A stretch of 64,000 nucleotides of DNA, taken from sequence record PQ799574.1, one strand, 5' to 3'. The position numbers were made by a program, and so were the translations under genes. Of this stretch, positions 5,333 through 63,344 are shown piece after piece. The notes under the pieces were generated by a model. The model was not told the origin of the DNA. It did not search any database and worked only from the letters and a program-made list of their open reading frames with translations. The stretch's first letter is position 1. Every line of letters begins with the position of its first letter. This DNA is from Escherichia phage vB_EcoM_Maryam.

Positions 5333-6029
<697 letters not shown>

Positions 6030-6041
6030 TTTCACAAAGTT

Positions 6042-6074
6042 GTTTACATGGGGTTTTAGTAGTGATACTATTAC
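6042..6074 (+). promoter_or_regulatory. T4-type early promoter (-35 GTTTAC, -10 region AGTGATACTATTAC)
   Basis: GTTTAC plus extended -10 at the usual spacing; A/T-rich upstream; first copy of a direct repeat. Confidence 0.6.
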
Positions 6075-6107
6075 CCTATCAAAACAAATGTGAAATTGGA
6101 GAACAAA

Positions 6108-6341
6108 ATGAAAACGTATCAAGAATTTATTGCTGAAACTGCTGATGTAAAAGTTGAGTTTATTTACACTGGCAAGAAAGATAAAATGGGTGAAATGCCT
6201 CATGGAGTTCTTCGTGATGCATTAGATGATTTCGGTCAACTCGGTGGTGAAGAGTTTGGCGATTACTTTGTTATCTATGGCCCGGCAAAAGTCATTGAGA
6301 AATGGGCTGATAAATATAAATCAATTTTTCGTAAAAAATAA
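6108..6341 (+). CDS. internal protein (ipI position) with capsid-targeting N-terminus
   Basis: N-terminus MKTYQEFIAE equals the T-even internal-protein capsid targeting sequence; body differs from T4 IPI; alternative start 6090. Confidence 0.65.
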   Translation: MKTYQEFIAETADVKVEFIYTGKKDKMGEMPHGVLRDALDDFGQLGGEEFGDYFVIYGPAKVIEKWADKYKSIFRKK

Positions 6342-6374
6342 GTTTACTTTTAGATAGGGTAGTGATACTATTAC
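6342..6374 (+). promoter_or_regulatory. T4-type early promoter, second copy of the 6042 repeat
   Basis: GTTTAC and identical 22-mer agtgatactattaccctatcaa as at 6061-6082. Confidence 0.6.
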
Positions 6375-6399
6375 CCTATCAACTACCGAGGAGAATAAA

Positions 6400-6585
6400 A
6401 TGAAACGTTGTGAATTAATTCGAAATGTTGCTATTGCAATTTCTGCTTCCGCTTTTAGTTTTTCAATGTTTGTTGGATTTATATGCGGATTATTGACTAC
6501 AGCAGAAAATGTTTTTTCACTTGTAGTAGCATTTTTAATTGGTTTAATTGCTATCGTTATGGATAAAATTTCTAAAGGTGAATAG
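6400..6585 (+). CDS. small membrane protein
   Basis: 61 aa, hydrophobic helices. Confidence 0.5.
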   Translation: MKRCELIRNVAIAISASAFSFSMFVGFICGLLTTAENVFSLVVAFLIGLIAIVMDKISKGE

Positions 6586-10082: not shown

Positions 10083-10213
10083 TATCTAGGCCTTTCCAGG
10101 CCTCTCTAGGCATCATTTAGTTTCTACCCTTTATAATATATTATCCTATCCTTTGATTTCCCCTCCCTGCCCTAGAATTCCCCAAAACTTTTTAAAAATT
10201 TTTTCACAAAACT

Positions 10214-10245
10214 GTTTACATCCCTGTTCTTCTATGGTACTATAC
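10214..10245 (+). promoter_or_regulatory. T4-type early promoter (GTTTAC ... TGGTACTATAC)
   Basis: -35 GTTTAC, 15-nt spacer, extended -10; A/T-rich upstream ttttcacaaaa. Confidence 0.7.
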
Positions 10246-10286
10246 AACTATCAACTACTGATACAGAAAACAACTTGGAGAATGAA

Positions 10287-10550
10287 ATGGATAATTACGG
10301 TGAACTGTTCAACTTTTTTATGAAATGTGTTTCAGAAGATTTTGGTCGTACAGTGAATGATATTAAAGTTATCGGTCCTGACCATCCGATGTTTGAAACT
10401 TACGCAGTAATGGGTAATGAAGATGGTCAGTGGTATACTGTAAAGGTTGTGATTAATATGTTCACAGCAGAAGGTTATGTTAAACTGTCTTCTAAAGTTT
10501 ACCATGATAACGATGAAATCGCAGAAGAATATTTCAATAATATGAAATAA
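10287..10550 (+). CDS. hypothetical protein
   Basis: 87 aa from ATG 10287 (track start 10275 is TTG); ggag RBS. Confidence 0.5.
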   Translation: MDNYGELFNFFMKCVSEDFGRTVNDIKVIGPDHPMFETYAVMGNEDGQWYTVKVVINMFTAEGYVKLSSKVYHDNDEIAEEYFNNMK

Positions 10551-10581
10551 GTTTACACAGGCTCATGATTGAGATATTATG
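10551..10581 (+). promoter_or_regulatory. early promoter-like (GTTTAC ... GATATTATG)
   Basis: sigma70-like hexamers at correct spacing. Confidence 0.5.
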
Positions 10582-10606
10582 AGTCTATAACTTTGAGGAG
10601 AACATT

Positions 10607-10942
10607 ATGAAACGTAACTTTAGTAAAGCTTTTTGTAATAGAAATTATTATCCTGAAGAGCTTTTTGAATCTAAGGAATTTAAAGAGTTTAACGAACGCT
10701 CTCAAAACATGCCTGTACAATGGGTGTTAGATTATGCCAAACGTATCTTTGAAGGCGTGCGGGATATTTGTCCTGATGATGAAGCTCCTTATTTTAAAAA
10801 GGCTTGGGAACTCGCCAACCAAGCATATATCAATGCTTTAGAATCTTCTAAAGGTACTGACGATGATTTTATTTTATTAGCTATCAATGATGCCGTTATC
10901 GAGGCCATCAACGTCTTTATCGACGAGCTAGACGAAGAATAA
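10607..10942 (+). CDS. hypothetical protein
   Basis: 111 aa; gaggag RBS. Confidence 0.5.
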   Translation: MKRNFSKAFCNRNYYPEELFESKEFKEFNERSQNMPVQWVLDYAKRIFEGVRDICPDDEAPYFKKAWELANQAYINALESSKGTDDDFILLAINDAVIEAINVFIDELDEE

Positions 10943-10943
10943 G

Positions 10944-10972
10944 TTTACAATCTATTAAAACGTGATATTATC
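10944..10972 (+). promoter_or_regulatory. early promoter-like (GTTTAC ... GTGATATTATC)
   Basis: sigma70-like hexamers at correct spacing. Confidence 0.5.
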
Positions 10973-10998
10973 TAATTGTATCAACCTAAGGAAATACT

Positions 10999-11592
10999 AT
11001 GAACACACTGAAGAAAATTGTTGAGTTTATTCGCACTAAACTTGGTTCTGCTATGGCTAAAAATTTATCTGTTGAAGAACAGTATACTGCTGCGGCAGCA
11101 AAACTACTTGATAAGATTAAAGATCTAAAAACTGCTTCTGTTAAATCTATTAATGAAGAAAAACGTATTCGTGAACTTATTGTCGAAAAGAATCGACAGG
11201 CCGAATCAAAAGAGCGTGAAATTCGCAAGCTTCTTTCCGAAGGTCAAGATGTAACAATGCATGCTAAACTTGGTTTACTATATCGTCGAACAGCTGAGCA
11301 GTTGACTACTAAAGCTGATGGTTATGCTGAAATGCGAATTGAAATCGCCAAGAAAGTAGTTGAGTTAGATGATGCTCGCCAAGAACTTGCAGTTAAATTG
11401 GAATATATCCGTGAAACTCGCGCCGCGAATGCCCTTGGAATTAGTACTGCTGATGATGTAGTTGAAATTGCAGCACTGACTAAGGTTGATATTGAAGATA
11501 CTCTTGCTCGAGTTGAAACCTTTAATGGTAATATTTCTGGGGTTGAAACTACCTCTGCCGATGTTCAGGAATATATTAATTCTCTGAAATAA
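10999..11592 (+). CDS. hypothetical coiled-coil protein
   Basis: 197 aa, heptad-rich. Confidence 0.5.
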
Positions 11593-16831: not shown

Positions 16832-17109
16832 TGGCTCAATTAAGTGCAGGGTTTGGTTATGAGTATTATACTGCACCTCGTCGTGTATCTGCTGCTCCTA
16901 AGAAAATTCAAAGTCTTGATGACTTCCAGGAAGTAGTCCGTAAAGCTTTCCAGGACTATGCACGTTATCTTAAAGAAGATTCGCAGGACTGTCTCGAAGA
17001 AGATGAAATTGCTTACTATGAGCAGCGTCTTGAACAGCTTAAAAACTTACATGAGGTTCGTGCAGAAGTTTCAAAGTCTATGAATAAATTGATTAGATTT
17101 AAAGAATAA
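16831..17109 (+). CDS. hypothetical protein
   Basis: 92 aa from ATG 16831. Confidence 0.45.
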
Positions 17110-17111
17110 CT

Positions 17112-17141
17112 GTTTACTTTTCCTCTTGACTGTGGTATAAT
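17112..17141 (+). promoter_or_regulatory. T4-type early promoter (GTTTAC ... TGTGGTATAAT) for regB
   Basis: near-consensus -35 and extended -10. Confidence 0.7.
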
Positions 17142-17168
17142 TTTTCTATCAGTTAAGAGGAGAACAAC

Positions 17169-17630
17169 ATGACTATCAATACAGAAGTTTTTATCCGTCG
17201 AAATAAGCTTCGTCGTCATTTTGAGTCGGAGTTTCGTCAAATTAACAATGAGATTCGTGAGGCATCAAAAGCAGCAGGAGTCTCATCGTTTCATCTAAAA
17301 TATTCTCAACATCTTCTTGATCGTGCAATTCAACGGGAGATTGATGAGACATATGTTTTTAAATTATTCCATAAAATAAAAGACCATGTTTTAGAAGTTA
17401 ATGAATTCCTGAGTATGCCTCCGCGTCCTGACATTGACGAGGATTTTATTGATGGGGTTGAATATCGTCCTGGACGTTTAGAAATCACAGATGGAAATCT
17501 TTGGCTTGGATTTACGGTTTGTAAGCCTAATGAGAAGTTCAAAAACCCGTCACTTCAATGCAGGATGGCAATTATCAACAGTCGTCGTTTACCAGGAAAG
17601 GCTTCTAAAGCAGTAATTAAAACTCAATGA
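17169..17630 (+). CDS. regB: endoribonuclease RegB
   Basis: 153 aa; matches recalled T4 RegB N-terminus and size. Confidence 0.8.
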   Translation: MTINTEVFIRRNKLRRHFESEFRQINNEIREASKAAGVSSFHLKYSQHLLDRAIQREIDETYVFKLFHKIKDHVLEVNEFLSMPPRPDIDEDFIDGVEYRPGRLEITDGNLWLGFTVCKPNEKFKNPSLQCRMAIINSRRLPGKASKAVIKTQ

Positions 17631-21061: not shown

Positions 21062-21444
21062 AATTCAGCGACTTTTCACAAAGTGGAAAACCTTCAAAGG
21101 CAGATGAATACTTAGGTTTATTAATGGCTGCACAAGCTTATTTTCATTCTGCACATTTTGAAACTAAAAGTTATGCTAGACACAAAGCATACGATTTTAT
21201 TTTCTCCGAGTTGCCAGATTTGATTGATAAATTTGGTGAGCAATATTTGGGGTATTCTGGTAGAAAATACACACCTTCAATTCCAGATGCCAGTAAACTT
21301 CCTACCGACACAATTAAAATGATTGATCGCATACTAGACCAATCTAACAGCATTTATAAAGAAATGCCTCCAGCCATCCAAAGCACGATAGATGATATTA
21401 CTGGAATGTTTTACCAGAGTAAGTATCTTCTTTCCCTCGAATAA
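21058..21444 (+). CDS. hypothetical protein
   Basis: 128 aa. Confidence 0.5.
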
Positions 21445-21448
21445 CATT

Positions 21449-21472
21449 AGTCTCCTTCGGGAGACTTTTTTC
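21449..21472 (+). terminator. rho-independent terminator (agtctcc-ttcg-ggagact + T run)
   Basis: 7-bp stem, UUCG loop, tttttt. Confidence 0.7.
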
Positions 21473-21481
21473 ATTTTACCG

Positions 21482-21513
21482 GTTTACTTTCCGTTTGAGC
21501 TGTGGTACTATAC
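21482..21513 (+). promoter_or_regulatory. T4-type early promoter (GTTTAC ... TGTGGTACTATAC)
   Basis: member of repeated promoter cassette family. Confidence 0.7.
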
Positions 21514-21539
21514 AACTATCGGATAAAGAGGAGAACATC

Positions 21540-21728
21540 ATGAAAATTGAAGCACTCAATCAAGAAGGAAATATCTACGTCATCATTAATGGTGATTTTT
21601 TCGTCAACATGGATGAAGTTACTAGTGAAGAACTTGTTGAAGTTTTGAAGAAACGTTATAATATGTGTGATGAAGCTGCAACGCATATGGCGTGTGCAAT
21701 ATTCTCTCTGTCATATGTGGTGGAATAA
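21540..21728 (+). CDS. hypothetical protein
   Basis: 62 aa from ATG 21540. Confidence 0.45.
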
Positions 21729-22128: not shown

Positions 22129-22291
22129 AAAGCAGATGTTTTTAATGAAGCTAATTGAAGAATATGCTAATGCAGTTTCTGACTATGAGTATTCTGCTCG
22201 GGAAAGAGGTACAGCTTTCGCAAAGGAAGAAATGAAAATCATGGTTGATGCTCACACAAAGCTTCAGAATTTTATTGAAAACAACATTTAA
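22118..22291 (+). CDS. small acidic protein (paralog family)
   Basis: 57 aa; MKTEKQMFLMKLIEE; below the ORF-track size cutoff. Confidence 0.4.
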   Translation: MKTEKQMFLMKLIEEYANAVSDYEYSARERGTAFAKEEMKIMVDAHTKLQNFIENNI

Positions 22292-22293
22292 CG

Positions 22294-22327
22294 GTTTACA
22301 AGTTGGCAAGGTTATGGTATAGTAATC
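22294..22327 (+). promoter_or_regulatory. T4-type early promoter (GTTTAC ... TATGGTATAGTAAT)
   Basis: hexamers and spacing. Confidence 0.6.
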
Positions 22328-22455
22328 TTGTCAACTGTCAAGGAGAAGAGAATGAAAGTTTTGTTTGTTATATATGTGATGATTCAATATAATTACCCAA
22401 TGTTTACTTATAATCTGGTGAACAACATTATTGATATGATTCAGAGGAGTATGTA

Positions 22456-25189: not shown

Positions 25190-25216
25190 GGGAGCCTTCG
25201 GGCTCCCTTTTTTTAT
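25190..25216 (+). terminator. rho-independent terminator (gggagcc-ttcg-ggctccc + T7)
   Basis: perfect 7-bp stem, UUCG loop, ttttttt. Confidence 0.75.
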
Positions 25217-25238
25217 TTCAAAAATTTTTCACAAAACG

Positions 25239-25270
25239 GTTTACAAGCATAAAGCTTTATGGTACTATAC
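25239..25270 (+). promoter_or_regulatory. T4-type early promoter (GTTTAC ... TATGGTACTATAC)
   Basis: member of repeated promoter cassette family. Confidence 0.7.
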
Positions 25271-25302
25271 AACTATCAACTGATACTGATTTGGAGAATA
25301 AA

Positions 25303-26271
25303 ATGAAAACTGTAACTATCAATAAGGGTATCTACTTCGGTAAAGAAATCTCTGGAACTTTTGAGCTCTTAGGCGAATGGTTCCCAGATAATGCTCCGGT
25401 AGATGCGCAAGGAGATGGTAAAGTTTTTGTTGAAATTGACGGTAAACGTCGCGGTGTTTGGGTTTACAAATCAGACATTTCATATGATGGTGTAAAAGTT
25501 GAAGAAGTTAAAGAATCGTATGAAGATATGAAAACCCGCATTAATAAAAGATTTAATGTTATGGGAATGATGACGAATGGTATTATTAACGGAAACATTC
25601 GTTCATTAATTATCTCTGGTGCGGCAGGTATTGGTAAAACGTATTCTTTAGATAAAGCTTTAAATAAAGCAAATGATATTGGATACATTGAATATAAAAG
25701 CATTAACGGTAAAATCTCCGGTATCGGTCTTTATGAACAGCTTTGGAATAATCGTGAAGAGAATTCTGTCCTTTTGATTGATGATGTGGATGTTTTCTCT
25801 GATATGGACATTCTTAATCTTCTGAAAGCTGCTCTGGACACTGGAGAGACCCGTAAAGTCTGCTGGAGCACCGCATCTTCTTACTTAGAAGAAAAAGGCA
25901 TTGAGCGTGAGTTTGAATTTAAAGGAACGATTGTTTTTATCACAAACGTTGACATTGACCGCGAATTAGACCGTGGTACTAAACTTGCTCCACATTTACA
26001 AGCATTAGTGTCCCGCTCAGTTTATTTGGATTTGGGTGTTCACACTAATGAAGAAATTATGGTCAGGGTTGAAGATGTTATTCTTTCAACTGACATGATG
26101 CAAAAACGCGGTCTTTCTGATGAAGAAACTTATAAAGCATTATCATGGATGAAAGTCAATGTTAACCGTTTACGCAATGTTTCACTGCGTACTGCACTTT
26201 ATCTTGCTGACTTTATTATGACCGACAAAAACGGTTGGGAAGAAATCGCTGAGGTTACTCTTCTGAAATAA
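25303..26271 (+). CDS. AAA+ family ATPase
   Basis: 322 aa from ATG 25303; Walker A GAAGIGKT, Walker B VLLIDDVD. Confidence 0.6.
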   Translation: MKTVTINKGIYFGKEISGTFELLGEWFPDNAPVDAQGDGKVFVEIDGKRRGVWVYKSDISYDGVKVEEVKESYEDMKTRINKRFNVMGMMTNGIINGNIRSLIISGAAGIGKTYSLDKALNKANDIGYIEYKSINGKISGIGLYEQLWNNREENSVLLIDDVDVFSDMDILNLLKAALDTGETRKVCWSTASSYLEEKGIEREFEFKGTIVFITNVDIDRELDRGTKLAPHLQALVSRSVYLDLGVHTNEEIMVRVEDVILSTDMMQKRGLSDEETYKALSWMKVNVNRLRNVSLRTALYLADFIMTDKNGWEEIAEVTLLK

Positions 26272-26369: not shown

Positions 26370-26675
26370 ATGATGTTATACTCAAAGGCTCGTGAAATTT
26401 ACGAAACTAAAATTAAAGAAGCTGTATTTCAATTCGCAACGACAATGCGATGGACAAATGACTGGGAGTATTCAAAAAATCATAAGAAGCCCATGGTGAC
26501 AAGAAAGGCTCATATGTTAGTGTTAATAGACCGTGAGCAGATTAAAGCCCGAGAAGCCCTCCATAATCATAAAAAGGCTGCCTTTGAATGGTTTATGGAT
26601 AACACTGCTCCTGAGACTAAGAAAGCGGTTAGCGCATGGTTTAGTGGAAAAAATTGTGAAAGAAGTTTCTTTTAG
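26370..26675 (+). CDS. hypothetical protein
   Basis: about 101 aa; ggagg RBS before ATG 26370 (alternatives 26361, 26373). Confidence 0.45.
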   Translation: MMLYSKAREIYETKIKEAVFQFATTMRWTNDWEYSKNHKKPMVTRKAHMLVLIDREQIKAREALHNHKKAAFEWFMDNTAPETKKAVSAWFSGKNCERSFF

Positions 26676-26677
26676 TG

Positions 26678-26709
26678 GTTTACAAGACTGTTCCTCTGTG
26701 GTACTATAC
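26678..26709 (+). promoter_or_regulatory. T4-type early promoter (GTTTAC ... TGTGGTACTATAC)
   Basis: inside the 3-prime end of the preceding ORF; member of repeated cassette family. Confidence 0.65.
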
Positions 26710-26735
26710 AACTATCAACTACGGAGGAACAGAAA

Positions 26736-27263
26736 ATGAACGCTAAAGATATTTTCAACTTGGTAAATTACAACGATGGTAAATTTAAATCTGAAGCACA
26801 AAGCAAGTTCTTTAATGACATCTCAATCGGAGGTGAAATCACAGTTGATGGAGGACAAATTTACAAATCCCGTTGGAATTGGATCGTTATTATTGATGAG
26901 ATTGGTATTGTAGAAATTTATAAGAATACGAATAAAAATCGTACATTACACTGGTCTCGTGATACTAACGAACAGTACAAAAAGGATAAAGCATCTAAAT
27001 TATCTCGCGTAACTCAAGAAGATATTGAGTTCATCAAGAAAGATATTTTGATGTATGATAACTTAATTGCTGAAGAGCAAGCTGTTATTGATAAATTTGA
27101 CGAGATTAAAGCTTCTCGTGAAATTCCTGATTTTATGAAAGAATCAGTAAATGAACGATACACTCTCATTTCAGAGCGTATTGAAACTTACAAAAAGCAA
27201 AGAGCTGAACGCCAAAATACTCTTCGGAAGTTTGAAGAACGGTTAAAGACGGTACTCGCATAA
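26736..27263 (+). CDS. hypothetical protein
   Basis: 175 aa; ggagg RBS. Confidence 0.5.
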   Translation: MNAKDIFNLVNYNDGKFKSEAQSKFFNDISIGGEITVDGGQIYKSRWNWIVIIDEIGIVEIYKNTNKNRTLHWSRDTNEQYKKDKASKLSRVTQEDIEFIKKDILMYDNLIAEEQAVIDKFDEIKASREIPDFMKESVNERYTLISERIETYKKQRAERQNTLRKFEERLKTVLA

Positions 27264-28630: not shown

Positions 28631-29650
28631 ATGAAAACTCGTTCTCAAATTGAAGATATGGTTCGTAATGCCAGCTATACTCGTGATGTTATGACATTTT
28701 TGTGCCAAAATAATTTAGACCCTGATAAAGTTAATCGTGATATTCACTTTAAATATATGAATAGCAGTGAATGGTTACGTCATTTTAGTAAAGCGGGGTA
28801 TATTACACAAATGACTGCTCGTGAGCAGCTCACCGATTTCTGTAAAACTATTGATTATAAAAATCCTCTGTTTGTTCAAGGTGTTGGTCAGAGTAAGGTC
28901 GATTTATCATCTGGATTTTTCAATCCAAATCATTATCGTATTGAATGGAGATTTATTGCTCTATTCCGTAAACAATTAAAGCAAATTTTGTCGACGGCTA
29001 GTCGATTAAAAGGTTCTGACATTAACTTAAAGAACCTGAAATTTGATGGTTATACTCTTCAGATGGAAGTAAGACCATTAAAAGAAAATAATAGAACTGC
29101 ACGAATTAGCTTTAAACCTAATACAAAAAATTCTCTTTCAATTTGCGAATGCCTTAAATCGCAGTTGACAGAAGCATTTAAGTATATGGATGTTGTTGCC
29201 GCTGTTCATTCTAAGATTTTACCTCGTTTTGAGCGAAATTGGGAACATACAACAACATATGAACTTGATATGATCGTTTCATTTAAATACGATTTTTTGA
29301 GAAAGGATGAAGTCCCGCAAGAGAAAAAGCAAGAAGTGCAAGATAACTTAAATTTATCTAATTACTCATCAAACGATCCTAAATTTTGGATGTATAGTTC
29401 AGGCAATAAAGATGCATGGAAATTCAATAAAGTGAATTTTCTTCCTATTGAAAATCCGAGTCTTAAACCTGTTGAAAAATGGCACGCGGATGCGATTGAG
29501 AAGTCTATCAAGGCAGTAGATGATGAACTCGTTAAAGCGACCAATGAAGTGCTAGAAGCTGAAAAGATGCTAGAAAAAGCTCAAGAAAAAGTCAAAAATC
29601 TCACGAAGCAACGTTCTAAACTGAACAATGCACTAAATGCACTGAACTAG
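28631..29650 (+). CDS. hypothetical protein with C-terminal coiled coil (paralog family)
   Basis: 339 aa; MKTR N-terminus. Confidence 0.5.
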   Translation: MKTRSQIEDMVRNASYTRDVMTFLCQNNLDPDKVNRDIHFKYMNSSEWLRHFSKAGYITQMTAREQLTDFCKTIDYKNPLFVQGVGQSKVDLSSGFFNPNHYRIEWRFIALFRKQLKQILSTASRLKGSDINLKNLKFDGYTLQMEVRPLKENNRTARISFKPNTKNSLSICECLKSQLTEAFKYMDVVAAVHSKILPRFERNWEHTTTYELDMIVSFKYDFLRKDEVPQEKKQEVQDNLNLSNYSSNDPKFWMYSSGNKDAWKFNKVNFLPIENPSLKPVEKWHADAIEKSIKAVDDELVKATNEVLEAEKMLEKAQEKVKNLTKQRSKLNNALNALN

Positions 29651-29679
29651 TTTACTTTGCCACAAGGATGTGGTATAAT
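29650..29679 (+). promoter_or_regulatory. T4-type early promoter (GTTTAC ... TGTGGTATAAT)
   Basis: consensus hexamers. Confidence 0.7.
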
Positions 29680-29707
29680 GTTCTTACTTTCTACTGAGGA
29701 GATTATT

Positions 29708-30706
29708 ATGACTCGTAACGAATATATCAAATCATTCAATAGCGTTATTGATGATAAAGTTAAACCTATGTCTAGTAAGAATAGTGTGATTTCTATTATC
29801 AATCAATGGCTCAATAATACTGATGCAAGTATTGTTTCTTCCGGCAAATTTATTCATGAAGTTCGTGAAATTTCTAGCCGTGTAGATAAAGATGACATTA
29901 AGAAAACCTTTAAAGGGTCTCGTCTTCTTTCATACTTAGTCAACAGAGATATTCTTAGTAAATTTGGGAAAGAAATTAAACGAACTAAAGATGTAGTAGG
30001 ATATAATTGGTTCGGTGATGTTAATTCTTATCATCTTAATAAAGAAGCCCCTGAGAATATTTTTACTCGTCGTTGGATTAGTAATTTCAGACTTTTCAAA
30101 GGACAAATTCTAAAATCAGCTTCTAAATTATGTTATGGCGATTATCGTCAAATTCATCCTTTGGCTTCTGATATGATTATCGTAAAAGAATATGAGCTTG
30201 ATGAAAATAAAGTAGCTATTTTTGTGAATTATGGATTTTTTACACCAAACGCTAACCAAAAGAATATTAATAAATTTTTCTCAATTGCTAGCACTATAAC
30301 TTATCAATTAAAGGCGGTTTTGGGCTGTATGGAAACAGTAGAAAATATTCATACATATCCTTTTAAGAATATATGCGGTTGGGAAGGATATAAAATTGTA
30401 GTTAGTCTTCGTGAAGTGAAATGTACTTATTCACCTACTAGTAAAGAAATTTACCAACAAAAATGTGATGAAATTGTGAATACTCCTAAAGAAGAAACTA
30501 CCCTTGAGGAACTAATGGAATGTCTTGATGATTCACCTGAACCGGTAGAAATTCGTCCAGAAGTTATTGCATTAGAAAAAGCTTATAAAGAAGTTCTAGA
30601 AATTTCTAATAAAGCGCAGAAAGAATATGAGCAGGCTAAAAGGATTTGGGAAGAATCTGTCAATCGCTTGGATCGTCTTGAACAAGCTTTACAGTTAATT
30701 AAGTAA
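29708..30706 (+). CDS. hypothetical protein with C-terminal coiled coil (paralog family)
   Basis: 332 aa from ATG 29708 (ORF open from 29657). Confidence 0.5.
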   Translation: MTRNEYIKSFNSVIDDKVKPMSSKNSVISIINQWLNNTDASIVSSGKFIHEVREISSRVDKDDIKKTFKGSRLLSYLVNRDILSKFGKEIKRTKDVVGYNWFGDVNSYHLNKEAPENIFTRRWISNFRLFKGQILKSASKLCYGDYRQIHPLASDMIIVKEYELDENKVAIFVNYGFFTPNANQKNINKFFSIASTITYQLKAVLGCMETVENIHTYPFKNICGWEGYKIVVSLREVKCTYSPTSKEIYQQKCDEIVNTPKEETTLEELMECLDDSPEPVEIRPEVIALEKAYKEVLEISNKAQKEYEQAKRIWEESVNRLDRLEQALQLIK

Positions 30707-37340: not shown

Positions 37341-37411
37341 ACATTCTGTATATTACCATTCTAAGCTATCGTTCCCTTCTTATCATTCCCTAAAATAATT
37401 TTCACAAAGTT

Positions 37412-37442
37412 GTTTACAACGAGCTCAAACTGTGGTATTATT
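37412..37442 (+). promoter_or_regulatory. T4-type early promoter (GTTTAC ... TGTGGTATTATT)
   Basis: upstream ttcacaaagttgtttaca identical to the promoter at 6031-6048. Confidence 0.7.
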
Positions 37443-37640
37443 AACACATGAATTGCCTTTGAGGAATTGATATGGTTGATAAAGAGATTAAAATTGACCA
37501 GTATTATCGTGTTAACGGACATATCGTTATTGTTACAGCAGTCGATGATCTAGATGTTCATTATACTGTGATTAAATGGAACAAACGTATGATTTGTGAT
37601 CGTGCTGTATTTAGTTCAGTTGCTAAGGAAATTAAACTCC

Positions 37641-45992: not shown

Positions 45993-46062
45993 TTAAAATC
46001 GCAGCAGTTTTTTCATTCAGAACATCGTTAGAAGCTTTGATGATGTAAGTTACTTTAGACAT
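45982..46062 (-). pseudogene. motA: truncated motA: first about 25 codons on minus strand, then unrelated codons and stop
   Basis: minus-strand MSKVTYIIKASNDVLNEKTAAILIT matches recalled MotA N-terminus; similarity ends at 45988, abutting the gene 45 fragment. Confidence 0.75.
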
Positions 46063-46159
46063 TTTGTTTCTCCGTAGTTGATAAGACTATAATACCATAA
46101 GTTAAAGCAGAAGTAAACTTTATTTTGAGCTCTTTTTCAAGAGCTCTGGTAAAAATTAC

Positions 46160-46375
46160 TTAGATTGATAGGTCTTTAATCTTAGCTATTAAAACAGCTT
46201 TTCCTTCACGAAGTTTTTCCAGTTTACGACCATTAGAGCCGCGAACTACTAAGGAATTTATCTCCACTTCCAACCAATTTAGTTTTTCAACTAGTTCTTT
46301 ACGTTTAGCATTCATGCCGGGTTTAACTTTACCGAAACGGGTGGTAGCGTTTTGAGTATTTTTCATCTTATTCAT
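46160..46375 (-). CDS. hypothetical basic protein
   Basis: 71 aa; ggag RBS. Confidence 0.5.
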   Translation of the reverse strand: MNKMKNTQNATTRFGKVKPGMNAKRKELVEKLNWLEVEINSLVVRGSNGRKLEKLREGKAVLIAKIKDLSI

Positions 46376-46414
46376 TTTAATCTCCAGTTATTTTTCTGTA
46401 TCAGTGTTGATAGG

Positions 46415-46447
46415 GTAATAGTACCATGGAATGCTTTGGTTGTAAAC
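46415..46447 (-). promoter_or_regulatory. T4-type early promoter, minus strand (GTTTAC ... TGGTACTATTAC)
   Basis: reverse complement shows GTTTAC, 15-nt spacer, extended -10; shares ctattaccctatcaac with the promoters at 6061 and 6361. Confidence 0.65.
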
Positions 46448-46469
46448 CGTTTTGTGAAAAAAATTTTAA

Positions 46470-46497
46470 ATAAAAAAGGGAGAGCCGAGGCTCTCCC
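46470..46497 (-). terminator. rho-independent terminator, minus strand (gggagagcc hairpin + T run on minus)
   Basis: 9-bp GC stem; A run precedes on plus strand, so T run follows on minus. Confidence 0.65.
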
Positions 46498-49429: not shown

Positions 49430-49529
49430 AGTAAACGTTTAATACATCAATCATTAAAACGATTGGGAATATACTCAAAACAACTAAAATTATAATTATA
49501 TTCCATATAGCTTTAATAATCTTTTTCAT
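49416..49529 (-). CDS. small membrane peptide
   Basis: 37 aa from ATG 49529 with ggagg RBS; longer ORF-track version runs through a promoter. Confidence 0.35.
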   Translation of the reverse strand: MKKIIKAIWNIIIILVVLSIFPIVLMIDVLNVYFGFM

Positions 49530-49554
49530 TTTGTGTTCCTCCGTGGTTGATAGG

Positions 49555-49587
49555 GTAATAATACCACAGAGGAACAGTCTTGTAAAC
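49555..49587 (-). promoter_or_regulatory. T4-type early promoter, minus strand (GTTTAC ... TGTGGTATTATTAC)
   Basis: reverse complement gttgtttacaagactgttcctctgtggtattattaccctatcaacc. Confidence 0.65.
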
Positions 49588-49834
49588 AACTTTTTTAAAA
49601 ATATTCGTAATAAATGTGAATACCAATCACTACTGCCGAAACTTGCGCAACCCACCACGCACAAGCAATAAGTACAGAATTAAAAATTTTCATAATAACC
49701 TCATCACAAAAGTAAATGTTAAACAAATTACTGGAATACTAATTAACCAAACAAAACACCACCACAATGAACTCATAGTTCAATCTCAGCGATTTTCATT
49801 TTATTCTCCAAATCTGTATCAGTAGTTGATAGTT

Positions 49835-49866
49835 GTATAGTACCACGGTCCTTGTGGTATGTAAAC
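49835..49866 (-). promoter_or_regulatory. T4-type early promoter, minus strand (GTTTAC ... TGGTACTATAC)
   Basis: member of repeated promoter cassette family. Confidence 0.65.
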
Positions 49867-49881
49867 CATTTTGTGAAATTT

Positions 49882-50439
49882 TTAAATGGAAAGATACCAT
49901 CCATTGTAGTTGCTTTTTCTTACAACCTTACGAAGGTCTTCTCTATCACCGATGAACTTCGGAGTGTACTGGATGACACCTGGATGAATTTCTTTAGTGT
50001 TGAATATAATTATACAGTCCGCGACCTGGTGATTTAGAATGGGCCCTAGATTTATTCCAGAACCATATGGATACTCTCCGCTGCATCCTGTTGTTACAGA
50101 AATCCAACGTGAGTCAGTTTGATGTGTCTTAACTTCTACACGGAGCCCGCAATATTTTGGATGTGCTAAAACATCCCATGCATATGTGTACGGATCATTG
50201 ACATCTTCTTGGCCTTTATTGACATATCCGCTTAGCCAATCTGCTACAAAAAACTCTGCGTACACAGCGATACGGCATCTTTCGATAACTTCTGTCTTAT
50301 CCTGATTTGGGTTTTGTTTTAAAGAGTATCTTGCAGTATCAGCAATTTTGACCTTCATTTCACCAGTCAAGTCACTGTTCGATAGGGTAAATGTCGGAAT
50401 CTGAAATAGTCTCTGTAGCCCCGGATTCGTTTTCTGCAT
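49882..50439 (-). CDS. denB: endonuclease IV DenB (by position and size)
   Basis: 185 aa, between the ndd-region ORFs and rIIB. Confidence 0.6.
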   Translation of the reverse strand: MQKTNPGLQRLFQIPTFTLSNSDLTGEMKVKIADTARYSLKQNPNQDKTEVIERCRIAVYAEFFVADWLSGYVNKGQEDVNDPYTYAWDVLAHPKYCGLRVEVKTHQTDSRWISVTTGCSGEYPYGSGINLGPILNHQVADCIIIFNTKEIHPGVIQYTPKFIGDREDLRKVVRKSNYNGWYLSI

Positions 50440-53875: not shown

Positions 53876-54079
53876 TTAATTCATATTACGCTTAATAACT
53901 TCAGCAACTTCTAGTAGTTCATCTTTAGTTGCGGTGTCGGATTGAATTTTATCTCTAATATCTTTAAAGCGGTTTTTAAATTCTTCAGCTTCTCCCATAT
54001 CGAAAAAGCGTTGAATGATTCTATATTCTCGATGAACTGCTTTATCAAAAAGTTCTAAATTTACTTTATATGATTTCAT
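53876..54079 (-). CDS. hypothetical protein (rIIA.1 position)
   Basis: 67 aa; gagga RBS. Confidence 0.45.
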
Positions 54080-54100
54080 TTCAATATCCTCATTTGCCCA

Positions 54101-54134
54101 ATTAATTATACCACATCCTTGTGGTAAAGTAAAC
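54101..54134 (-). promoter_or_regulatory. T4-type early promoter, minus strand (GTTTAC ... TGTGGTATAATTAAT)
   Basis: reverse complement cagtagtttactttaccacaaggatgtggtataattaat; would drive rIIA.1-rIIA. Confidence 0.65.
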
Positions 54135-55954
54135 TACTGGCTCATCCATTCTTTACGAAGGTCAGCATTATCTCCCATGAGCATTTCAAAAAGCTCTTTC
54201 CAGTTCTCAGGAAGTTTAACAACATCATATACTGGGTTTTGAATCATCTCACGATATTCAGATTTTTCCAAAGAGCCAAGTCCCTTAATATAACGGATGC
54301 TATGTTTAGGTAGAGCATCTTTGGCACTCTCATATTCAGCGACTGTATAAAACCATTCTTGTTTTTTACCGACCTGAGCGATGATTACAGGAGTTTTGAC
54401 AAAGCGAATTCGTCCTTGCTCAAACAATTCTGGCCAATTACTAAAAAATCCAAGCAGAGAAGGATAAATGCTTCCTAGACCATCATGGTCAGCATCAGTC
54501 ATAATAGCAATATTATGATAATTCAAGTTTTCAGCTTTTTCACCGAGAACTAATCCAGTGATTGCGCAAATATCAAATAGTTCTTTGTTTTTAAGCATAT
54601 CAGCATATGACATACCCCAACTATTAAGAACTTTACCACGCAATGGATAACCACCATGAAGTTCTTTATCACGAACATCAATAAGATATCCGATAGCCGA
54701 ATCACCCTCAGTCAAGAAAAGAGTCGTGTCAGCATCTTTACCACAAAGATTCGCTTTAATATGTTTATGAACCTTAGCTTTAGAAGCCTTTTTAGCTGCT
54801 TTTGTTTCTGCTGCTTTTTCTGCTGCCAATTTACGAGCCAAAGCAGCTTCAATAATCGGCATTAGAATTGCTTCATTATTTAGAATAGCACGTGAAATCT
54901 TTTTAGCATCAAGCTGAATATGACTACGGATTTCACCAAATGGAGAAGTCAAACGCTCTTTAGTTTGAGAATCAAATCGCATGTTTTTCATATCACGAAC
55001 AAACATAACGATAGTCAAACATTCTTTAACACGTGCTTTAGTTACATCAATTTTGAATTTACGTTTGATTTGTGGAATAAGGTCTTCACAAATATCATCC
55101 ATAACACAGTCAATGTGATGGCCACCATTCTTAGTGTGAATGTTATTCACATAAGTTAATTGACGAAATCCATCCGGTGAACGACCAACCGCAATAGAAC
55201 AATTTTCTTGTTCTTGAACAATAGCATGTTCATCATACTGTCGTGCATATTTCTTAAAATTGCCCTGAACCTTTTTACCATTAAAGGTAAATTGAATATC
55301 AGGATAAACAACAGCAAGTGTCTGGAGACGATCTAGTGTAATATCAAGATAAACTTGGGACAGCTCATTAGTTTCAAATGACATAAAATCAGGAATGAAA
55401 GTAACACGTGTTCCTTTCCATTTTCCAGGAATATCTTCCCATGATTTATTTTCCATGCCATTTGAACAACGAACTACAATATTATTTTGACCATCACCCG
55501 TTTCACCAACAAACATCACAGAAAAAATGTTTGTCAAACTAGAACCAACACCATTCATACCGCCGGTGACACGTTCTTTATCATCACCAAAGTTACCACC
55601 CGCTTTTGGAATAGTCCAAGCAGCAACTGGACCAGGAATTTCTTCACCGGTAGGTGTTTTAACCATCGCTTGTGGAATACCACGACCGTTATCTTCAACT
55701 GTTACTTGATTGTTTTTAATAGTAACATTAATTTTATTTGCGAATTTAAACTTAGTACGAATACCTTCATCGACTGAGTTATCGATAATTTCATCAATAA
55801 GCTTAACAAGACCAGGTACATACTGAACACTTTCCCATTTACCAAACAGAAAGCGCTCATGCATTTCATTAGCAGAAGAGCCAATGTACATGCCACTACG
55901 CTTTTTGATATGTTCAATATCGCTCAGAATTTTAATTTCATTCTTAATCATCAC
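54134..55954 (-). CDS. 39: DNA topoisomerase II large subunit gp39 (GyrB-like), unsplit
   Basis: 606 aa continuous ORF; GHKL ATPase motifs incl. VEDNGRGIP; Toprim region; no gene 60 split. Confidence 0.9.
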   Translation of the reverse strand: MMIKNEIKILSDIEHIKKRSGMYIGSSANEMHERFLFGKWESVQYVPGLVKLIDEIIDNSVDEGIRTKFKFANKINVTIKNNQVTVEDNGRGIPQAMVKTPTGEEIPGPVAAWTIPKAGGNFGDDKERVTGGMNGVGSSLTNIFSVMFVGETGDGQNNIVVRCSNGMENKSWEDIPGKWKGTRVTFIPDFMSFETNELSQVYLDITLDRLQTLAVVYPDIQFTFNGKKVQGNFKKYARQYDEHAIVQEQENCSIAVGRSPDGFRQLTYVNNIHTKNGGHHIDCVMDDICEDLIPQIKRKFKIDVTKARVKECLTIVMFVRDMKNMRFDSQTKERLTSPFGEIRSHIQLDAKKISRAILNNEAILMPIIEAALARKLAAEKAAETKAAKKASKAKVHKHIKANLCGKDADTTLFLTEGDSAIGYLIDVRDKELHGGYPLRGKVLNSWGMSYADMLKNKELFDICAITGLVLGEKAENLNYHNIAIMTDADHDGLGSIYPSLLGFFSNWPELFEQGRIRFVKTPVIIAQVGKKQEWFYTVAEYESAKDALPKHSIRYIKGLGSLEKSEYREMIQNPVYDVVKLPENWKELFEMLMGDNADLRKEWMSQ

Positions 55955-57493: not shown

Positions 57494-57763
57494 TTAATTA
57501 AACATTGGAGCGATACGTTTCAGAAGAGTAGCAGCACCTTTAGCGAATTTTACATCATGAAAAACAGTTTCTTCTTCTGTAACAACTCGAACTTTAATAT
57601 TTTCACAATCCCAATTTTTACGAACAATCTTCAAAAGCTGCAGTAAATCTTTACATTCAGCAATATCGATAACACATCCACGAGAATCTTCCATTATCGC
57701 ACGATAACCGTAAGCCATACCATAATCGTTGAAAGATTGCTCGATGATAATTAAGTTTTCCAT
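57494..57763 (-). CDS. hypothetical protein
   Basis: 89 aa from ATG 57763; leader nearly identical to that of the 10287 gene. Confidence 0.45.
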   Translation of the reverse strand: MENLIIIEQSFNDYGMAYGYRAIMEDSRGCVIDIAECKDLLQLLKIVRKNWDCENIKVRVVTEEETVFHDVKFAKGAATLLKRIAPMFN

Positions 57764-57860
57764 TTTATTCTCCAAGTTGTTTTCTGTATCAGTAGTTGAT
57801 ATTGATATAGTACCATAATCAACTACTGATGTATATAGTTTTATGAAAAAATTTTAAACT

Positions 57861-58352
57861 TTATGCATAGCGAGCTTTGCTGTAGTGTTTAATCCAACTT
57901 TCAGGAATGACTTTGTATGTTCCTAAAAATACCGCGTTGTATAACTTAACGCCATCTTCTACCCATTGATCAGTAATGTATGCACACATAGCGCGAGTAC
58001 GGTTAACAACACCTTCCTCACCTTCAGTAAATTCAAACTCATAAGGAGCAACGAACTTGATAGCTTGACCGAGTTTCCACTTAAAGTCTACACCTACATG
58101 CGAAGTATCAATCGTTTCAATTCCTTTAGCGGGAACAGCTTTCAAAAACGCAGGCTCAAGAAATTTCCATCGAACATAACCAAACTGAGGTTTAGACATT
58201 CCATCTTTAGGAATGATACGCACTTTTACTTCAGAATCTTCATCTTTAACACCATGTTTAAGCTGAATGCTTACGACTTCAACCAATTTTCCTGCTGCTT
58301 TAGAACGGGATTTATCAGATACACGAGCAATTTCACCGATATTAATATTCAT
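57861..58352 (-). CDS. hypothetical protein (paralog of next ORF)
   Basis: 163 aa; C-terminal ITDQWVEDGVKLYNAVFLGTY motif. Confidence 0.5.
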   Translation of the reverse strand: MNINIGEIARVSDKSRSKAAGKLVEVVSIQLKHGVKDEDSEVKVRIIPKDGMSKPQFGYVRWKFLEPAFLKAVPAKGIETIDTSHVGVDFKWKLGQAIKFVAPYEFEFTEGEEGVVNRTRAMCAYITDQWVEDGVKLYNAVFLGTYKVIPESWIKHYSKARYA

Positions 58353-58425
58353 AATTATCTCTCACTTGTTAAAAAGATTTTATACTCCGCAGGACCATTA
58401 TACTCTGGTCCCAAGAGTTTGTAAA

Positions 58426-59448: not shown

Positions 59449-59472
59449 TTTATTATCCTCAGTAGCTATGGT

Positions 59473-59505
59473 GTTATAATACCACAACTAACCGAGGAAG
59501 TAAAC
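59473..59505 (-). promoter_or_regulatory. T4-type early promoter, minus strand (GTTTAC ... TGTGGTATTATAAC)
   Basis: reverse complement gttgtttacttcctcggttagttgtggtattataac. Confidence 0.65.
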
Positions 59506-59511
59506 AACTTT

Positions 59512-63313: not shown

Positions 63314-63344
63314 ATTTTTCTCACATCTTACGGACGATTGACTA

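Follow-up and report, generated by a model that had tools for sequence, protein, structure and literature searches.

The early promoters of bacteriophage T4 have been catalogued since the 1980s, and GTTTAC is the T4 variant of the TTGACA sequence. The original lists are said to be those of Liebig and Rueger from 1989, of Wilkens and Rueger, and of Miller and colleagues from 2003. An early promoter consists of an UP element, a -35 sequence, TGn and a -10 sequence, with additional regions of consensus (Hinton, 2010, Virol J 7:289; PMC2988021). Gene shuffling mediated by PeSL units has been published for T4-type phages (Arbiol et al., 2010, PMC2839356; Comeau et al., 2014, PMC4122927). The latter study covers the T4/PST pair, with the consensus TTTACW-N17-TAYWAT, and published cases include the ndd and internal-protein loci (PMC2839356, PMC4122927). 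PeSLs are further characterized by excised mini-circles, which form when tandem cassettes recombine and are assayed by inverse PCR on infected cells or virions (PMC2839356). Arbiol et al. raised a possible helper recombinase and likened the units to integrons (PMC2839356). Early-promoter cassettes and their role as recombination linkers are already known biology.

Lambdoid morons and integron gene cassettes resemble these units in that small accessory genes move with their own expression signals. Moron insertion is, however, regarded as illegitimate, with no part played by the regulatory sequences, and integrons have a dedicated integrase and attC sites, whereas for the cassettes described here the flanking regulatory repeats themselves would be the substrate for homologous recombination.

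We analyzed a stretch of 64,000 nucleotides from Escherichia phage vB_EcoM_Maryam (PQ799574.1), hereafter the window, taking as focal site the cassette ahead of e.8. We consider it about 90% probable that the sites are T4-like phage early promoters (Pe) with 5' leaders and translation-initiation regions, which occasionally recombine as in the PeSL model.

Early promoter sites in the window

The window derives from a T4-like phage (Tequatrovirus) and was found to be 100% identical to PV290051.1 over positions 1-45988. We counted 21 strong early-promoter sites, each directly 5' of an early gene (Table 1). A syntenic T4 orthologue ahead of early genes was found for 20 of these, at positions that include e.8, e.7, regB, nrdC.10, nrdC.8, motA, ndd.4, srd and motB. 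The focal cassette was ~96% identical to T4 70.62-70.74 kb and 100% identical in RB51, in both cases ahead of e.8. The Tequatrovirus identity, the synteny and the UP/-35/TGn/-10 anatomy described below support the initial annotation in its assignment to T4 early promoters. All 11 positions that it gave proved to be real sites, each within 1-2 nt, but it omitted 57836(-), the paralogue most similar to the focal site, together with 46118(-), 6042, 6342, 10551, 10942, 17112, 22294, 29650 and 58426(-).

The sites were far more frequent than expected by chance. GTTTAC-N15-TGGTAYTATAC with at most 2 mismatches had 10 matches in the window against 0.02 expected, a number reached by none of 100 shuffles. 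CTATCAAC occurred 10 times (1.9 expected), with seven of the occurrences inside cassettes, and GGAGRAYARAA five times (0.38 expected), always in a cassette leader just ahead of the ATG. A 151-nt focal query matched 546 T-even genomes, and among the 12 records listed all but two had 6-9 matching places. The 21-nt core was found in 21 stretches on 7 contigs of IMG/VR, which is too few for an analysis of context diversity.

Table 1. Early-promoter cassettes and related features of the window.
Feature	Site	Coordinates	Strand	Remarks
Internal-virion-protein gene (6108-6341), upstream cassette	6042	5997..6110	+	
trna.4, upstream cassette	6342	6297..6402	+	
Focal cassette, T4 e.8 early promoter and leader		10169..10289	+	UP-like AAAACTTTTTAAAAATTTTTTCACAAAACT; -35 GTTTAC 10214-10219; 15-nt spacer; TGG TACTAT 10235-10243; ACAACTATCAACTACTGATACAGAAAACAACTTGGAGAATGAA after -10; ATG at 10287
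e.7 early promoter	10551	10506..10609	+	-35 abuts e.8 stop codon
e.6 early promoter	10942	10897..11000	+	-35/-10 spacing 17 nt, not 18
regB early promoter	17112	17067..17171	+	GTTTAC, TGGTATAAT; without shared leader
mobD.5, upstream cassette	21482	21437..21542	+	Stem-loop AGTCTCCttcgGGAGACT, then T-run; leader shared in part only (ACAACTATCGG)
mobD.2, upstream early promoter	22294	22249..22354	+	
nrdC.10, upstream cassette, full PeSL type	25239	25194..25305	+	Stem-loop AGGGAGCCttcgGGCTCCCT, then T-run, UP block, GTTTAC, TGGTACTAT, leader, GGAGAATAAAA, ATG
nrdC.8, upstream cassette	26678	26633..26738	+	
nrdC.4, upstream early promoter	29650	29605..29710	+	
55.6, upstream early promoter	37412	37367..37474	+	UP block, -35/TGn/-10; without shared leader
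Chimeric head-to-head junction		45988..45989		Gene 45 nt 1-55 (+, 45934-45988) joined to motA nt 1-74 (-, 46062-45989)
motA locus, second cassette, heading motA	46118	46060..46163	-	
Inserted 71-codon ORF		46160..46375	-	PHROG 6200, function unknown
Orthologue of T4 motA early promoter	46447	46373..46492	-	Stem-loop AGGGAGAGCctcgGCTCTCCCT upstream
ndd.4, upstream cassette	49587	49527..49632	-	Paralogue of 26678, 88% over 67 nt
ndd.6, upstream cassette		49797..49911	-	Full leader, exact RegB/S1 consensus
rIIA.1, upstream early promoter	54134	54077..54179	-	Paralogue of 29650; -35/spacer/-10 96.9% over 32 nt
Closest paralogue of focal cassette	57836	57763..57881	-	85.6% over 104 nt; degenerate -35 ATATAC, full leader, exact RegB/S1 consensus GGAGAATAAAA; heads 89-codon ORF (57763->57494) upstream of cef, internally deleted in T4
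motB, upstream early promoter	58426	58350..58471	-	Without TGn
motB.2, upstream early promoter		59446..59550	-	
srd, upstream early promoter		63311..63423	-	UP block TTTTTCATAAAA

Promoter and leader anatomy

The -35 sequence was exactly GTTTAC in 19 of the 21 sites, and a -10 of the form TAnnnT was present in all of them, at a distance of 18 nt in 20 sites and 17 nt in one. The degenerate -35 of copy 57836 is also found in T4. The TG of the extended -10 (TGn), mostly TGG, was correctly placed in 19 sites. The UP consensus ahead of the -35 is aAaaa.ttttca.AAA; sites without TTTCAYAAA were A/T-rich and less regular. A GGAG Shine-Dalgarno sequence was found in 15 of the 21.

We checked whether the similarity was limited to the -35 and -10 hexamers, the outcome that the initial annotation had set against its repeat interpretation. 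It was not, since conservation reaches beyond the hexamers, with an information content of 0.7-1.05 bit at the CTATCA positions 3' of the -10. The shared features past the hexamers are the upstream TTTCAYAAA block, the TGn, CTATCAAC at the start site and the Shine-Dalgarno sequence GGAGAATAAAA. The full composite of upstream block, promoter and leader was found in a subset only: among the 21 strong sites TTTCAYAAA was present in 8, TAYTATAC in 5, CTATCAA in 8 and TGATAC.GA in 5, and the long leader is common to only 7-8 copies.

The consensus sequence for cleavage by RegB/S1 is GG*AGRAYARAA (Durand et al., 2006, as cited in Uzan and Miller, 2010; PMC3014915). As in T4 early mRNA, the exact consensus is found here: five cassette leaders end in it, as GGAGAATAAAA or GGAGAACAAAA, directly ahead of the ATG. 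The focal copy, GGAGAATGAAA, in contrast deviates from it by one mismatch. The putative targets, five of them exact, are unpaired and lie in the translation-initiation regions of early genes; regB is itself encoded in the window, 3' of the promoter at 17112. As the conserved 3' block in the leader falls on the RegB/S1 consensus, part of the extended identity would have a functional explanation.

Similarity between the copies

BLASTN of the window against itself gave similarities of 60-125 nt among seven regions (10191-10294, 25192-25309, 26674-26740, 46368-46493, 49525-49591, 49793-49886, and 57745-57858). Over these lengths 7-8 copies are 76-88% identical in gapped alignment, and the core copies are 62-74% identical over 85 nt without gaps. 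The description of the copies as near-identical was overstated, as the best pair reached 85.6% over 104 nt and, outside the hexamers, the pairwise identity averaged 0.33-0.45.

Some copies are nevertheless truly paralogous, because they have spacers in common that promoter function leaves unconstrained. The 15-nt spacers of 26678 and 49587(-) are identical at 15 of 15 positions, which makes these two true paralogues, and those of 29650 and 54134(-) match at 14 of 15. The copies and the similarities between paralogues are also present in T4, and the cassette family, with copies and paralogue relations common to both phages, is old. Recent homogenisation of the paralogues within the genome by gene conversion was considered and rejected, as similarities were equal when measured against the T4 copies: 26678 of the window is 88.06% identical both to 49587 of the window and to T4 166.8 kb.

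Strand distribution and a chimeric junction

In genuine T4 (83 kb scanned) all 22 strict sites were found on one strand, the early-gene strand. The initial annotation placed the copies on both strands. This holds for the window sequence as it stands, but the cassettes seem two-stranded because of a chimeric head-to-head join at 45988/45989. The junction falls in codon 19 of gene 45 and codon 25 of motA, outside any cassette, and truncates both of these essential genes. The joined segments map to T4 32.5 kb and T4 163.5 kb, and PV290051.1 continues gene 45 normally past position 45988.

The initial annotation also proposed inversions. A real genomic inversion mediated by inverted cassette copies would agree with the plus-strand copies ending at 37412 and the minus-strand copies beginning at 46118. 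It is contradicted by a junction that lies within two coding sequences, both truncated, and not in a cassette. The uninterrupted gene 45 of PV290051.1 also speaks against it, as does the distance of ~37 kb between the segments, which are not adjacent on the circular T4 map. We give an inversion practically no chance; the opposite orientation was created by the join. Users of the window sequence need to be warned that the join makes repeat families falsely look inverted.

Recombination at the motA, internal-protein and e.7 loci

Dispersed repeats had been proposed to mediate modular gene shuffling. Base-level mosaics support such cassette-mediated shuffling at three loci of the window, where gene presence and absence change at junctions whose crossovers map inside cassettes. 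The motA locus changes from T4-like (93-100%) to JS98-like (85-100%) and back to T4-like, with the JS98-like stretch beginning in the leader of cassette 46447 and ending in the spacer of 46118. Cassette 46447 heads the inserted 71-codon ORF here, instead of motA. The ORF is 94-96% identical to orf253 of Dhakavirus JS98; T4 lacks it, and it is rarely found in Tequatrovirus. On its left side the insertion has its crossover within the leader of 46447. In cassette 46118 the stem-loop, -35 and spacer are JS98-derived, and the right crossover falls 3' of the spacer, before the motA ATG.

At the internal-protein locus the window has the order cassette, IP gene, cassette. In slur02 there is a single chimeric cassette, composed of the 5' half of 6042 and the leader of 6342, without the IP gene, and the crossover is within the 28-nt core GTAGTGATACTATTACCCTATCAA that the two cassettes share. 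At the third locus, HEMP5 and RB51 show a replacement of e.7 that is bounded by cassettes 10551 and 10942. Cassette 10551 forms the left boundary of this replacement, and also of a 234-nt insertion in slur02, while cassette 10942 forms the right boundary.

At the ATG of the ndd.6 cassette, 440 extra nt are inserted in slur02 and 225 in HEMP5. The cef/motB locus, considered as another cassette-to-cassette event, turned out to reflect a deletion within the ORF in T4. The cassette-bounded ORFs had no match in a Pfam search, and in PHROGs they matched only families of unknown function and one internal virion protein family.

Cassettes were not found to be enriched at variable places. Relative to T4 alone, 3 of 22 events touched a cassette, compared to 6.2 expected under a gene-junction null and 2.6 under a random-position null. 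With four comparison genomes and the one 64-kb window, 12 of 47 unique events touched a cassette, and these were clustered at five loci. Variable genes made up 5 of 19 cassette-headed genes and 20 of 106 others (P = 0.32; a small sample of four genomes and one 64-kb window). Since no enrichment was found, the cassettes are probably not what drives most gene turnover in the window.

Comparison with PeSLs and T4 early promoters

The cassettes share with PeSLs an AT-rich block, a sigma-70-type promoter, a Shine-Dalgarno sequence and an ATG, about 100 bp of conservation, and multiple copies located between small ORFans. As with PeSLs, chimeric cassettes are found at the junctions of ORF insertions, deletions and replacements, and the crossovers fall in the interval from the -10 to the ATG. 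They differ in that an adjacent upstream stem-loop was found in only 4 of the 21 sites. These four (21482, 25239, 46447, and 46118) are full PeSLs, whereas the others, the focal e.8 site among them, are promoter-leader units only. No hairpin was found within 90 nt upstream of the focal site; the nearest is a duplicated terminator at 10050-10085, ~130 nt upstream. Beside the focal site, one insertion is bounded by the duplicated stem-loop alone, without promoters, which again differs from PeSLs, as does the lack of enrichment at indel junctions in the four-genome comparison.

With the early promoters of T4 the sites share the host-polymerase elements, orthologous genomic positions, a single orientation in genuine genomes and consensus outside the canonical boxes. 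They differ in nothing essential, apart from one extra promoter of JS98 origin ahead of motA.

Proposed function and alternative explanations

From the features described above we infer that the cassettes are active promoters, where transcription starts, that RegB cleaves the leaders, and how and in which direction each exchange took place. Unmodified host sigma-70 RNA polymerase, expected to act immediately after infection and with no need for phage proteins to be made, would read the UP-like TTTCAYAAA, the -35 GTTTAC, the extended -10 TGn and the -10 TAnnnT, and transcription would start ~7 nt past the -10, inside the conserved CTATCAAC. The A-rich and unstructured leader ends in the GGAG Shine-Dalgarno sequence, which in the best-conserved copies forms part of the putative 11-nt RegB/S1 target GGAGAATAAAA. 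A cassette carrying both the promoter and this combined Shine-Dalgarno sequence and RegB target may thus serve strong early transcription, efficient translation and programmed inactivation of early mRNA in one unit. Because similar stretches of 25-100 nt, all in one orientation, lie repeatedly between small genes that are non-essential, homologous recombination by the phage would occasionally cross between two cassettes, either within a genome or between co-infecting phages. As in the published PeSL model, the outcome would be that an ORF and one cassette are inserted, deleted or replaced.

Mean pairwise identity is high in the functional boxes only (0.91 for the -35 and 0.80 for the extended -10), spacer identity is near background (0.33 versus 0.28 under the null), and indels are not enriched at the cassettes. 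These figures would fit pure convergence on an optimum for the host RNA polymerase and ribosome, with neither common ancestry nor a part in recombination. The identical or nearly identical unconstrained spacers, the similarity of 76-88% that extends over 60-125 nt through spacer and leader, and the chimeric cassettes with mapped crossover zones at three loci all argue otherwise. Convergence is contradicted by the spacers and chimeric cassettes for the core subfamily and tenable for the ~10 sites that share only the boxes; as an account of the whole family it is very unlikely. It is very improbable that the cassettes act as termini or attachment sites within a dedicated mobile system, similar to integron attC sites or MITEs and moved by a site-specific recombinase or transposase. 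Units of ORF and cassette do behave like gene cassettes, and a helper recombinase and a likeness to integrons were raised by Arbiol et al. (PMC2839356). The crossover positions vary, however: at the internal-protein locus the crossover is in the -10/discriminator core, at motA one lies in the interval from the -10 to the ATG and another in that from the spacer to the ATG, and e.7 has them at the -35 or ATG. Neither terminal inverted repeats nor target-site duplications were noticed in the alignments, all copies in genuine genomes have a single orientation, and T4 recombination is reported to need <50 bp of homology, according to work cited in PMC2839356.

The extended identity could alternatively reflect the leader AUCAACUACUGAUACAGA... 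acting as a structured cis-regulatory RNA, an sRNA or a protein-binding element, instead of promoter function. The leader is conserved in 5-8 copies beyond the needs of the promoter boxes, CTATCAA is shared with the cassettes of Dhakavirus JS98, and the mechanism of early-promoter shut-off is, according to reviews, incompletely understood. Against this, the leaders do not fold better than shuffled sequences (MFE 0 to -1.4 kcal/mol, z >= -1.3), and a search of them against Rfam gave no family match; on these grounds a structured leader RNA was rejected. Moreover, the Shine-Dalgarno sequence and the RegB/S1 consensus already explain the conserved 3' block, and over half of the early promoters lack the leader. 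We consider a leader element of this kind very unlikely overall. The CTATCAAC...TGATACAGA portion of the leader is not explained by any published function; of it, the JS98 cassettes have CTATCAA alone. There is a small chance that CTATCAAC, fixed in position at the start, and the following TGATACAGA constitute, in this promoter subfamily, a recognition element for a phage-encoded factor and not a leftover of ancestry or a generic start-site preference. Its role could be early-promoter shut-off, or promoter-specific stimulation by Alt-modified polymerase.

Early promoters with leaders that occasionally recombine thus remain the preferred reading. The window provides three clean base-level examples of cassette exchange, one of which probably crossed genera and brought a JS98-like ORF into Tequatrovirus. 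In this sample the cassettes explain only a minority of the differences in gene content, which tempers the general claim of PeSL-driven plasticity.

Number and Similarity of the Early Promoter Cassettes

A search for GTTTAC-N15-TGGTAYTATAC with at most two mismatches gave 10 matches in the window against 0.02 expected. A looser scan together with self-BLAST of the window identified 21 strong sites, each located directly 5' of an ORF on the same strand. The 11 coordinates listed in the initial annotation all proved to be genuine sites, to within 1-2 nt. The minus-strand site 57836 was missing from that list because its -35 is ATATAC; the region around it (57756-57858) is the closest paralogue of the focal cassette at 10214, with 85.6% identity over 104 nt.

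Strong early promoter sites in the window, with the gene or locus assigned by T4 synteny
Feature	Site	Strand	Downstream gene or locus
Early promoter	6042	+	ipI locus
Early promoter	6342	+	trna.4
Early promoter, focal	10214	+	e.8
Early promoter	10551	+	e.7
Early promoter	10942	+	e.6
Early promoter	17112	+	regB
Early promoter	21482	+	mobD.5
Early promoter	22294	+	mobD.2
Early promoter	25239	+	nrdC.10
Early promoter	26678	+	nrdC.8
Early promoter	29650	+	nrdC.4
Early promoter	37412	+	55.6
Early promoter	63378	-	srd
Early promoter	59505	-	motB.2
Early promoter	58426	-	motB
Early promoter	57836	-	ORF upstream of cef
Early promoter	54134	-	rIIA.1
Early promoter	49866	-	ndd.6
Early promoter	49587	-	ndd.4
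Early promoter	46447	-	orthologue of T4 motA promoter
Early promoter	46118	-	

The assignment of the sites as T4 early promoters was supported by T4 synteny and by their UP/-35/TGn/-10 architecture. Syntenic orthologues in the T4 reference (NC_000866) were found for 20 of the 21 sites, and the focal cassette matches the sequence 5' of e.8 at ~96% identity in T4 and at 100% in RB51. This architecture is shared with the T4 early promoters, described as having excellent UP, -35, TGn and -10 matches and "additional regions of consensus" (Hinton, 2010, PMC2988021). At seven promoters (6342, 10551, 10942, 17112, 29650, 54134 and 58426, the last two on the minus strand) the stop codon of the preceding gene directly adjoins the -35 GTTTAC (TAA-GTTTAC) or shares bases with it (TA-GTTTAC), which places the UP-element region within coding sequence.

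The aligned sites gave the consensus ..aAaaa.ttttca.AAA.t.GTTTACat...........tgTGGTAtTAT....cTATCAAcTa..gag. Similarity extends beyond the -35/-10 hexamers, as initially proposed, since the CTATCA positions 3' of the -10 carry 0.7-1.05 bit of information. The term "near-identical" was nevertheless too strong. Pairwise identity averaged 0.91 within the -35 and 0.80 within the extended -10; elsewhere it fell to 0.39 (upstream), 0.33 (spacer, against a null of 0.28), 0.45 (around the start site) and 0.36 (deeper in the leader). Individual elements were present in a minority of strong sites (TTTCAYAAA and CTATCAA in 8/21 each, TAYTATAC and TGATAC.GA in 5/21 each). A core subfamily (10214, 25239, 26678, 57836, 49866, 49587 and 46447) was found to be 76-88% identical over 60-125 nt by gapped BLAST and 62-74% identical over 85 nt ungapped, while the remaining strong sites have little in common beyond the promoter boxes.

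The 15-nt spacer is identical in 26678 and 49587, and 14 of its 15 positions are alike in 29650 and 54134. As promoter function leaves the spacer unconstrained, this marks some copies as true paralogues and not convergent. The same paralogue similarities were found in T4, and the identity of paralogues across genomes equals that within a genome, so the cassette family is old; no recent homogenisation of copies was seen in this comparison of the window with T4. In JS98 (1700-2130) an exact 41-nt direct repeat (GTTTACTTCTGCTTTAAACATGATACTATAGACCTATCAAA) recurs in the promoters on either side of orf253, and these tandem copies are closer to each other than any two cassettes of the window. A 151-nt focal query found 6-9 places in 10 of the 12 records listed out of 546 matching T-even records, so that carrying the cassette in several copies is common to the genus in general.

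Leader Sequences and Predicted RegB/S1 Sites

Counting 7 nt from the -10, transcription would start in CTATCAAC. The window contains 10 copies of this sequence (1.9 expected), 7 of them in cassettes. No folding of the leaders was found (MFE 0 to -1.4 kcal/mol, no better than shuffles), and no Rfam family matched them, the only Rfam matches in the window being nine tRNAs. For the leader segment CTATCAAC...TGATACAGA no function was found in the literature.

In the translation-initiation regions of early genes, the sites that RegB/S1 cleaves strongly follow the consensus GG*AGRAYARAA, with cleavage at the asterisk (Uzan and Miller, 2010, PMC3014915). This 11-mer was found five times in the window against 0.38 expected, and all five are the Shine-Dalgarno of a cassette, right before the ATG (6042, 6342, 25239, 49866 and 57836). 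The focal leader carries GGAGAATGAAA, one mismatch from the consensus, and regB itself is present behind promoter 17112. The conserved 3' block of the leader can thus be accounted for by the Shine-Dalgarno/RegB-S1 consensus, which suggests that part of the extended identity reflects functional constraint, namely translation and predicted programmed inactivation of early mRNA.

Strand Distribution and the Junction at 45988/45989

All plus-strand sites are located in window 1-45988 (segment A) and all minus-strand sites in 45989-64000 (segment B). Window 9000-12000 matched 771 phage records, nearly all T-even phages of E. coli and Shigella, and was 100% identical to PV290051.1 (Escherichia phage vB_EcoT_BCU-2, Tequatrovirus). 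By local BLAST, segment A equals PV290051.1 exactly, and the sequences part ways beyond it. PV290051.1 is titled "complete genome" yet is a fragment of 46,924 bp running from gene 5 to gene 45; a T4-like genome is ~167 kb.

Segment A is colinear with T4 in the reverse direction (78.0 to 32.5 kb), and segment B in the forward direction, starting at 163.5 kb, passing the rIIB/rIIA origin and ending at 12.5 kb. At the junction (45934-46062) only nucleotides 1-55 of gene 45 (sliding clamp, plus strand) are fused head-to-head to nucleotides 1-74 of motA (minus strand), whereas PV290051.1 has the normal continuation of gene 45. Because two essential genes are truncated head-to-head and the joined regions sit ~37 kb apart on the circular T4 map, the join is chimeric, an assembly or concatenation artefact, and it lies outside any cassette. 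The occurrence of cassettes on both strands is therefore correct for the window, but it is a product of the chimeric join. In 83 kb of genuine T4 DNA, all 22 occurrences of GTTTAC-N15-TGn-TAnnnT lie on the strand of the early genes. The suggested cassette-mediated inversion consequently has no basis.

Crossovers at Cassettes

Promoter-early stem-loops (PeSLs) were defined as composites of a stem-loop terminator and a strong early promoter with ~100 bp conserved; chimeric PeSLs and excised mini-circles were shown, and the crossovers fell in the interval from the -10 to the ATG (Arbiol et al., 2010, PMC2839356). They were extended to the T4/PST pair with the consensus TTTACW-N17-TAYWAT, an AT-rich block upstream and a Shine-Dalgarno and ATG at the 3' end; the examples include an ndd.4/.5 swap, and Repoila et al. 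(1994) were noted to have made similar observations for the internal-protein locus (Comeau et al., 2014, PMC4122927).

The motA locus of T4 consists of a stem-loop, an early promoter with leader, and motA. The window has a stem-loop, promoter 46447 with leader, a 71-codon ORF, a second stem-loop, promoter 46118 with leader, and motA. T4 homology ends in the leader just past TGATACAGAA. The ORF (46160-46375, minus strand) is lysine-rich and belongs to PHROG 6200, a family of unknown function. It is rare in Tequatrovirus (5 records at ≥99%) and 94-96% identical to orf253 of the Dhakavirus phages JS98, VR5 and Bp7, which occupies the equivalent position between gene 52 and motA. In a three-way alignment with T4 and JS98 the window was T4-like (93-100%) down to 46426 and JS98-like (85-100%) between 46386 and 46107, and T4 similarity resumed at the motA ATG; both crossover zones lie within cassettes. 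This looks like a cross-genus transfer into the region upstream of motA.

At the internal-protein locus the window carries an internal-protein gene (PHROG 8111) between cassettes 6042 and 6342. In slur02 only one cassette is present, a chimera in which the 5' half of 6042 is joined to the leader of 6342, with the crossover in the 28-nt GTAGTGATACTATTACCCTATCAA common to both. Between cassettes 10551 and 10942, e.7 is swapped for unrelated ORFs in HEMP5 and RB51, and slur02 has 234 extra nt within the leader of 10551. Extra nucleotides are also found at the ATG of cassette 49866 in the ndd locus (440 in slur02, 225 in HEMP5). Crossover positions vary from event to event, which would favour general homologous recombination over a site-specific mechanism.

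The proposed modular shuffling is thus supported at specific loci, but no general enrichment was found. Relative to T4 alone there are 22 indels or replacements of 40 nt or longer, and 3 of them touch a strong cassette, against 6.2 expected under a gene-junction null and 2.6 under a random-position null. One of these 3, at cef/motB, was found to be an internal ORF deletion in T4 starting 4 nt past the ATG. Pooled over T4, slur02, HEMP5 and RB51, 12 of 47 unique events touch a cassette. These cluster at no more than five loci, and in five events the two ends lie in different cassettes. Across these four genomes and one 64-kb window, cassette-headed genes were not significantly more variable than others (5/19 vs 20/106; Fisher P=0.32). 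Many of the remaining events reflect differences in homing endonucleases or introns (mobB, mobC, mobD, I-TevII, the mobA/gene 60 region, segB) or changes within series of closely packed small ORFs.

Other Differences in Gene Content

Compared to T4, the window lacks the nrdD intron with I-TevII and the homing-endonuclease genes mobC and mobB, and other ORFs take the place of the mobD region (34624, 35903-35926, 40694-40719 and 22467-24173). At 54469-54534 it lacks T4 2794-3910 (the 50-nt gene 60 translational bypass, gene 60.1, mobA and the gene 39 start), so that the large topoisomerase subunit appears to be encoded by one unsplit gene, as in the slur02 annotation. The tRNA cluster (7355-8815) holds nine genes (Gln, Leu, Gly, Pro, Ser, Thr, Met(cat), Tyr and Arg), unlike the eight of T4 (without Tyr) and the eleven of slur02, and is interrupted by a segB-like ORF (8029-8736). 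The ipIII/ipII/denV region of T4 is replaced at 14396-14975 by a single Ip4-like internal-protein gene (14502-14975), whose first 36 nt match the beginning of the internal-protein gene at 6108 (6108-6143) with 89% identity; this likeness is a shared capsid-targeting sequence.

Relation to PeSLs

A stem-loop is located directly upstream at only 4 of the 21 sites (21482, 25239, 46447 and 46118). No hairpin adjoins the focal site; the closest one is the terminator at 10050-10085. This 36-nt terminator is duplicated at 9491-9526, and the pair bounds a 524-nt insertion relative to T4 that carries a PHROG 2280 ORF, annotated in RB51 as "flanked by 34 bp imperfect direct repeat". The ORF (157 codons, 9572-10045) is likewise an insert relative to HEMP5 (9491-10085); its N-terminus, MKSYTQFLNEA, resembles the capsid-targeting sequence of internal proteins, and a T4 late-promoter-like TATAAATA directly follows the first terminator copy. 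Since the published PeSL has a stem-loop terminator and the focal site lacks an adjacent one, the focal element is best filed as a T4 early promoter and leader with PeSL-like recombination potential, not as a full PeSL.

Altogether, the cassette family is real, highly non-random and was correctly named at the outset. It has been described before, as have its extended consensus and the proposal that it takes part in modular shuffling. In this small sample the cassettes are demonstrable crossover points, but not the dominant route of gene turnover.
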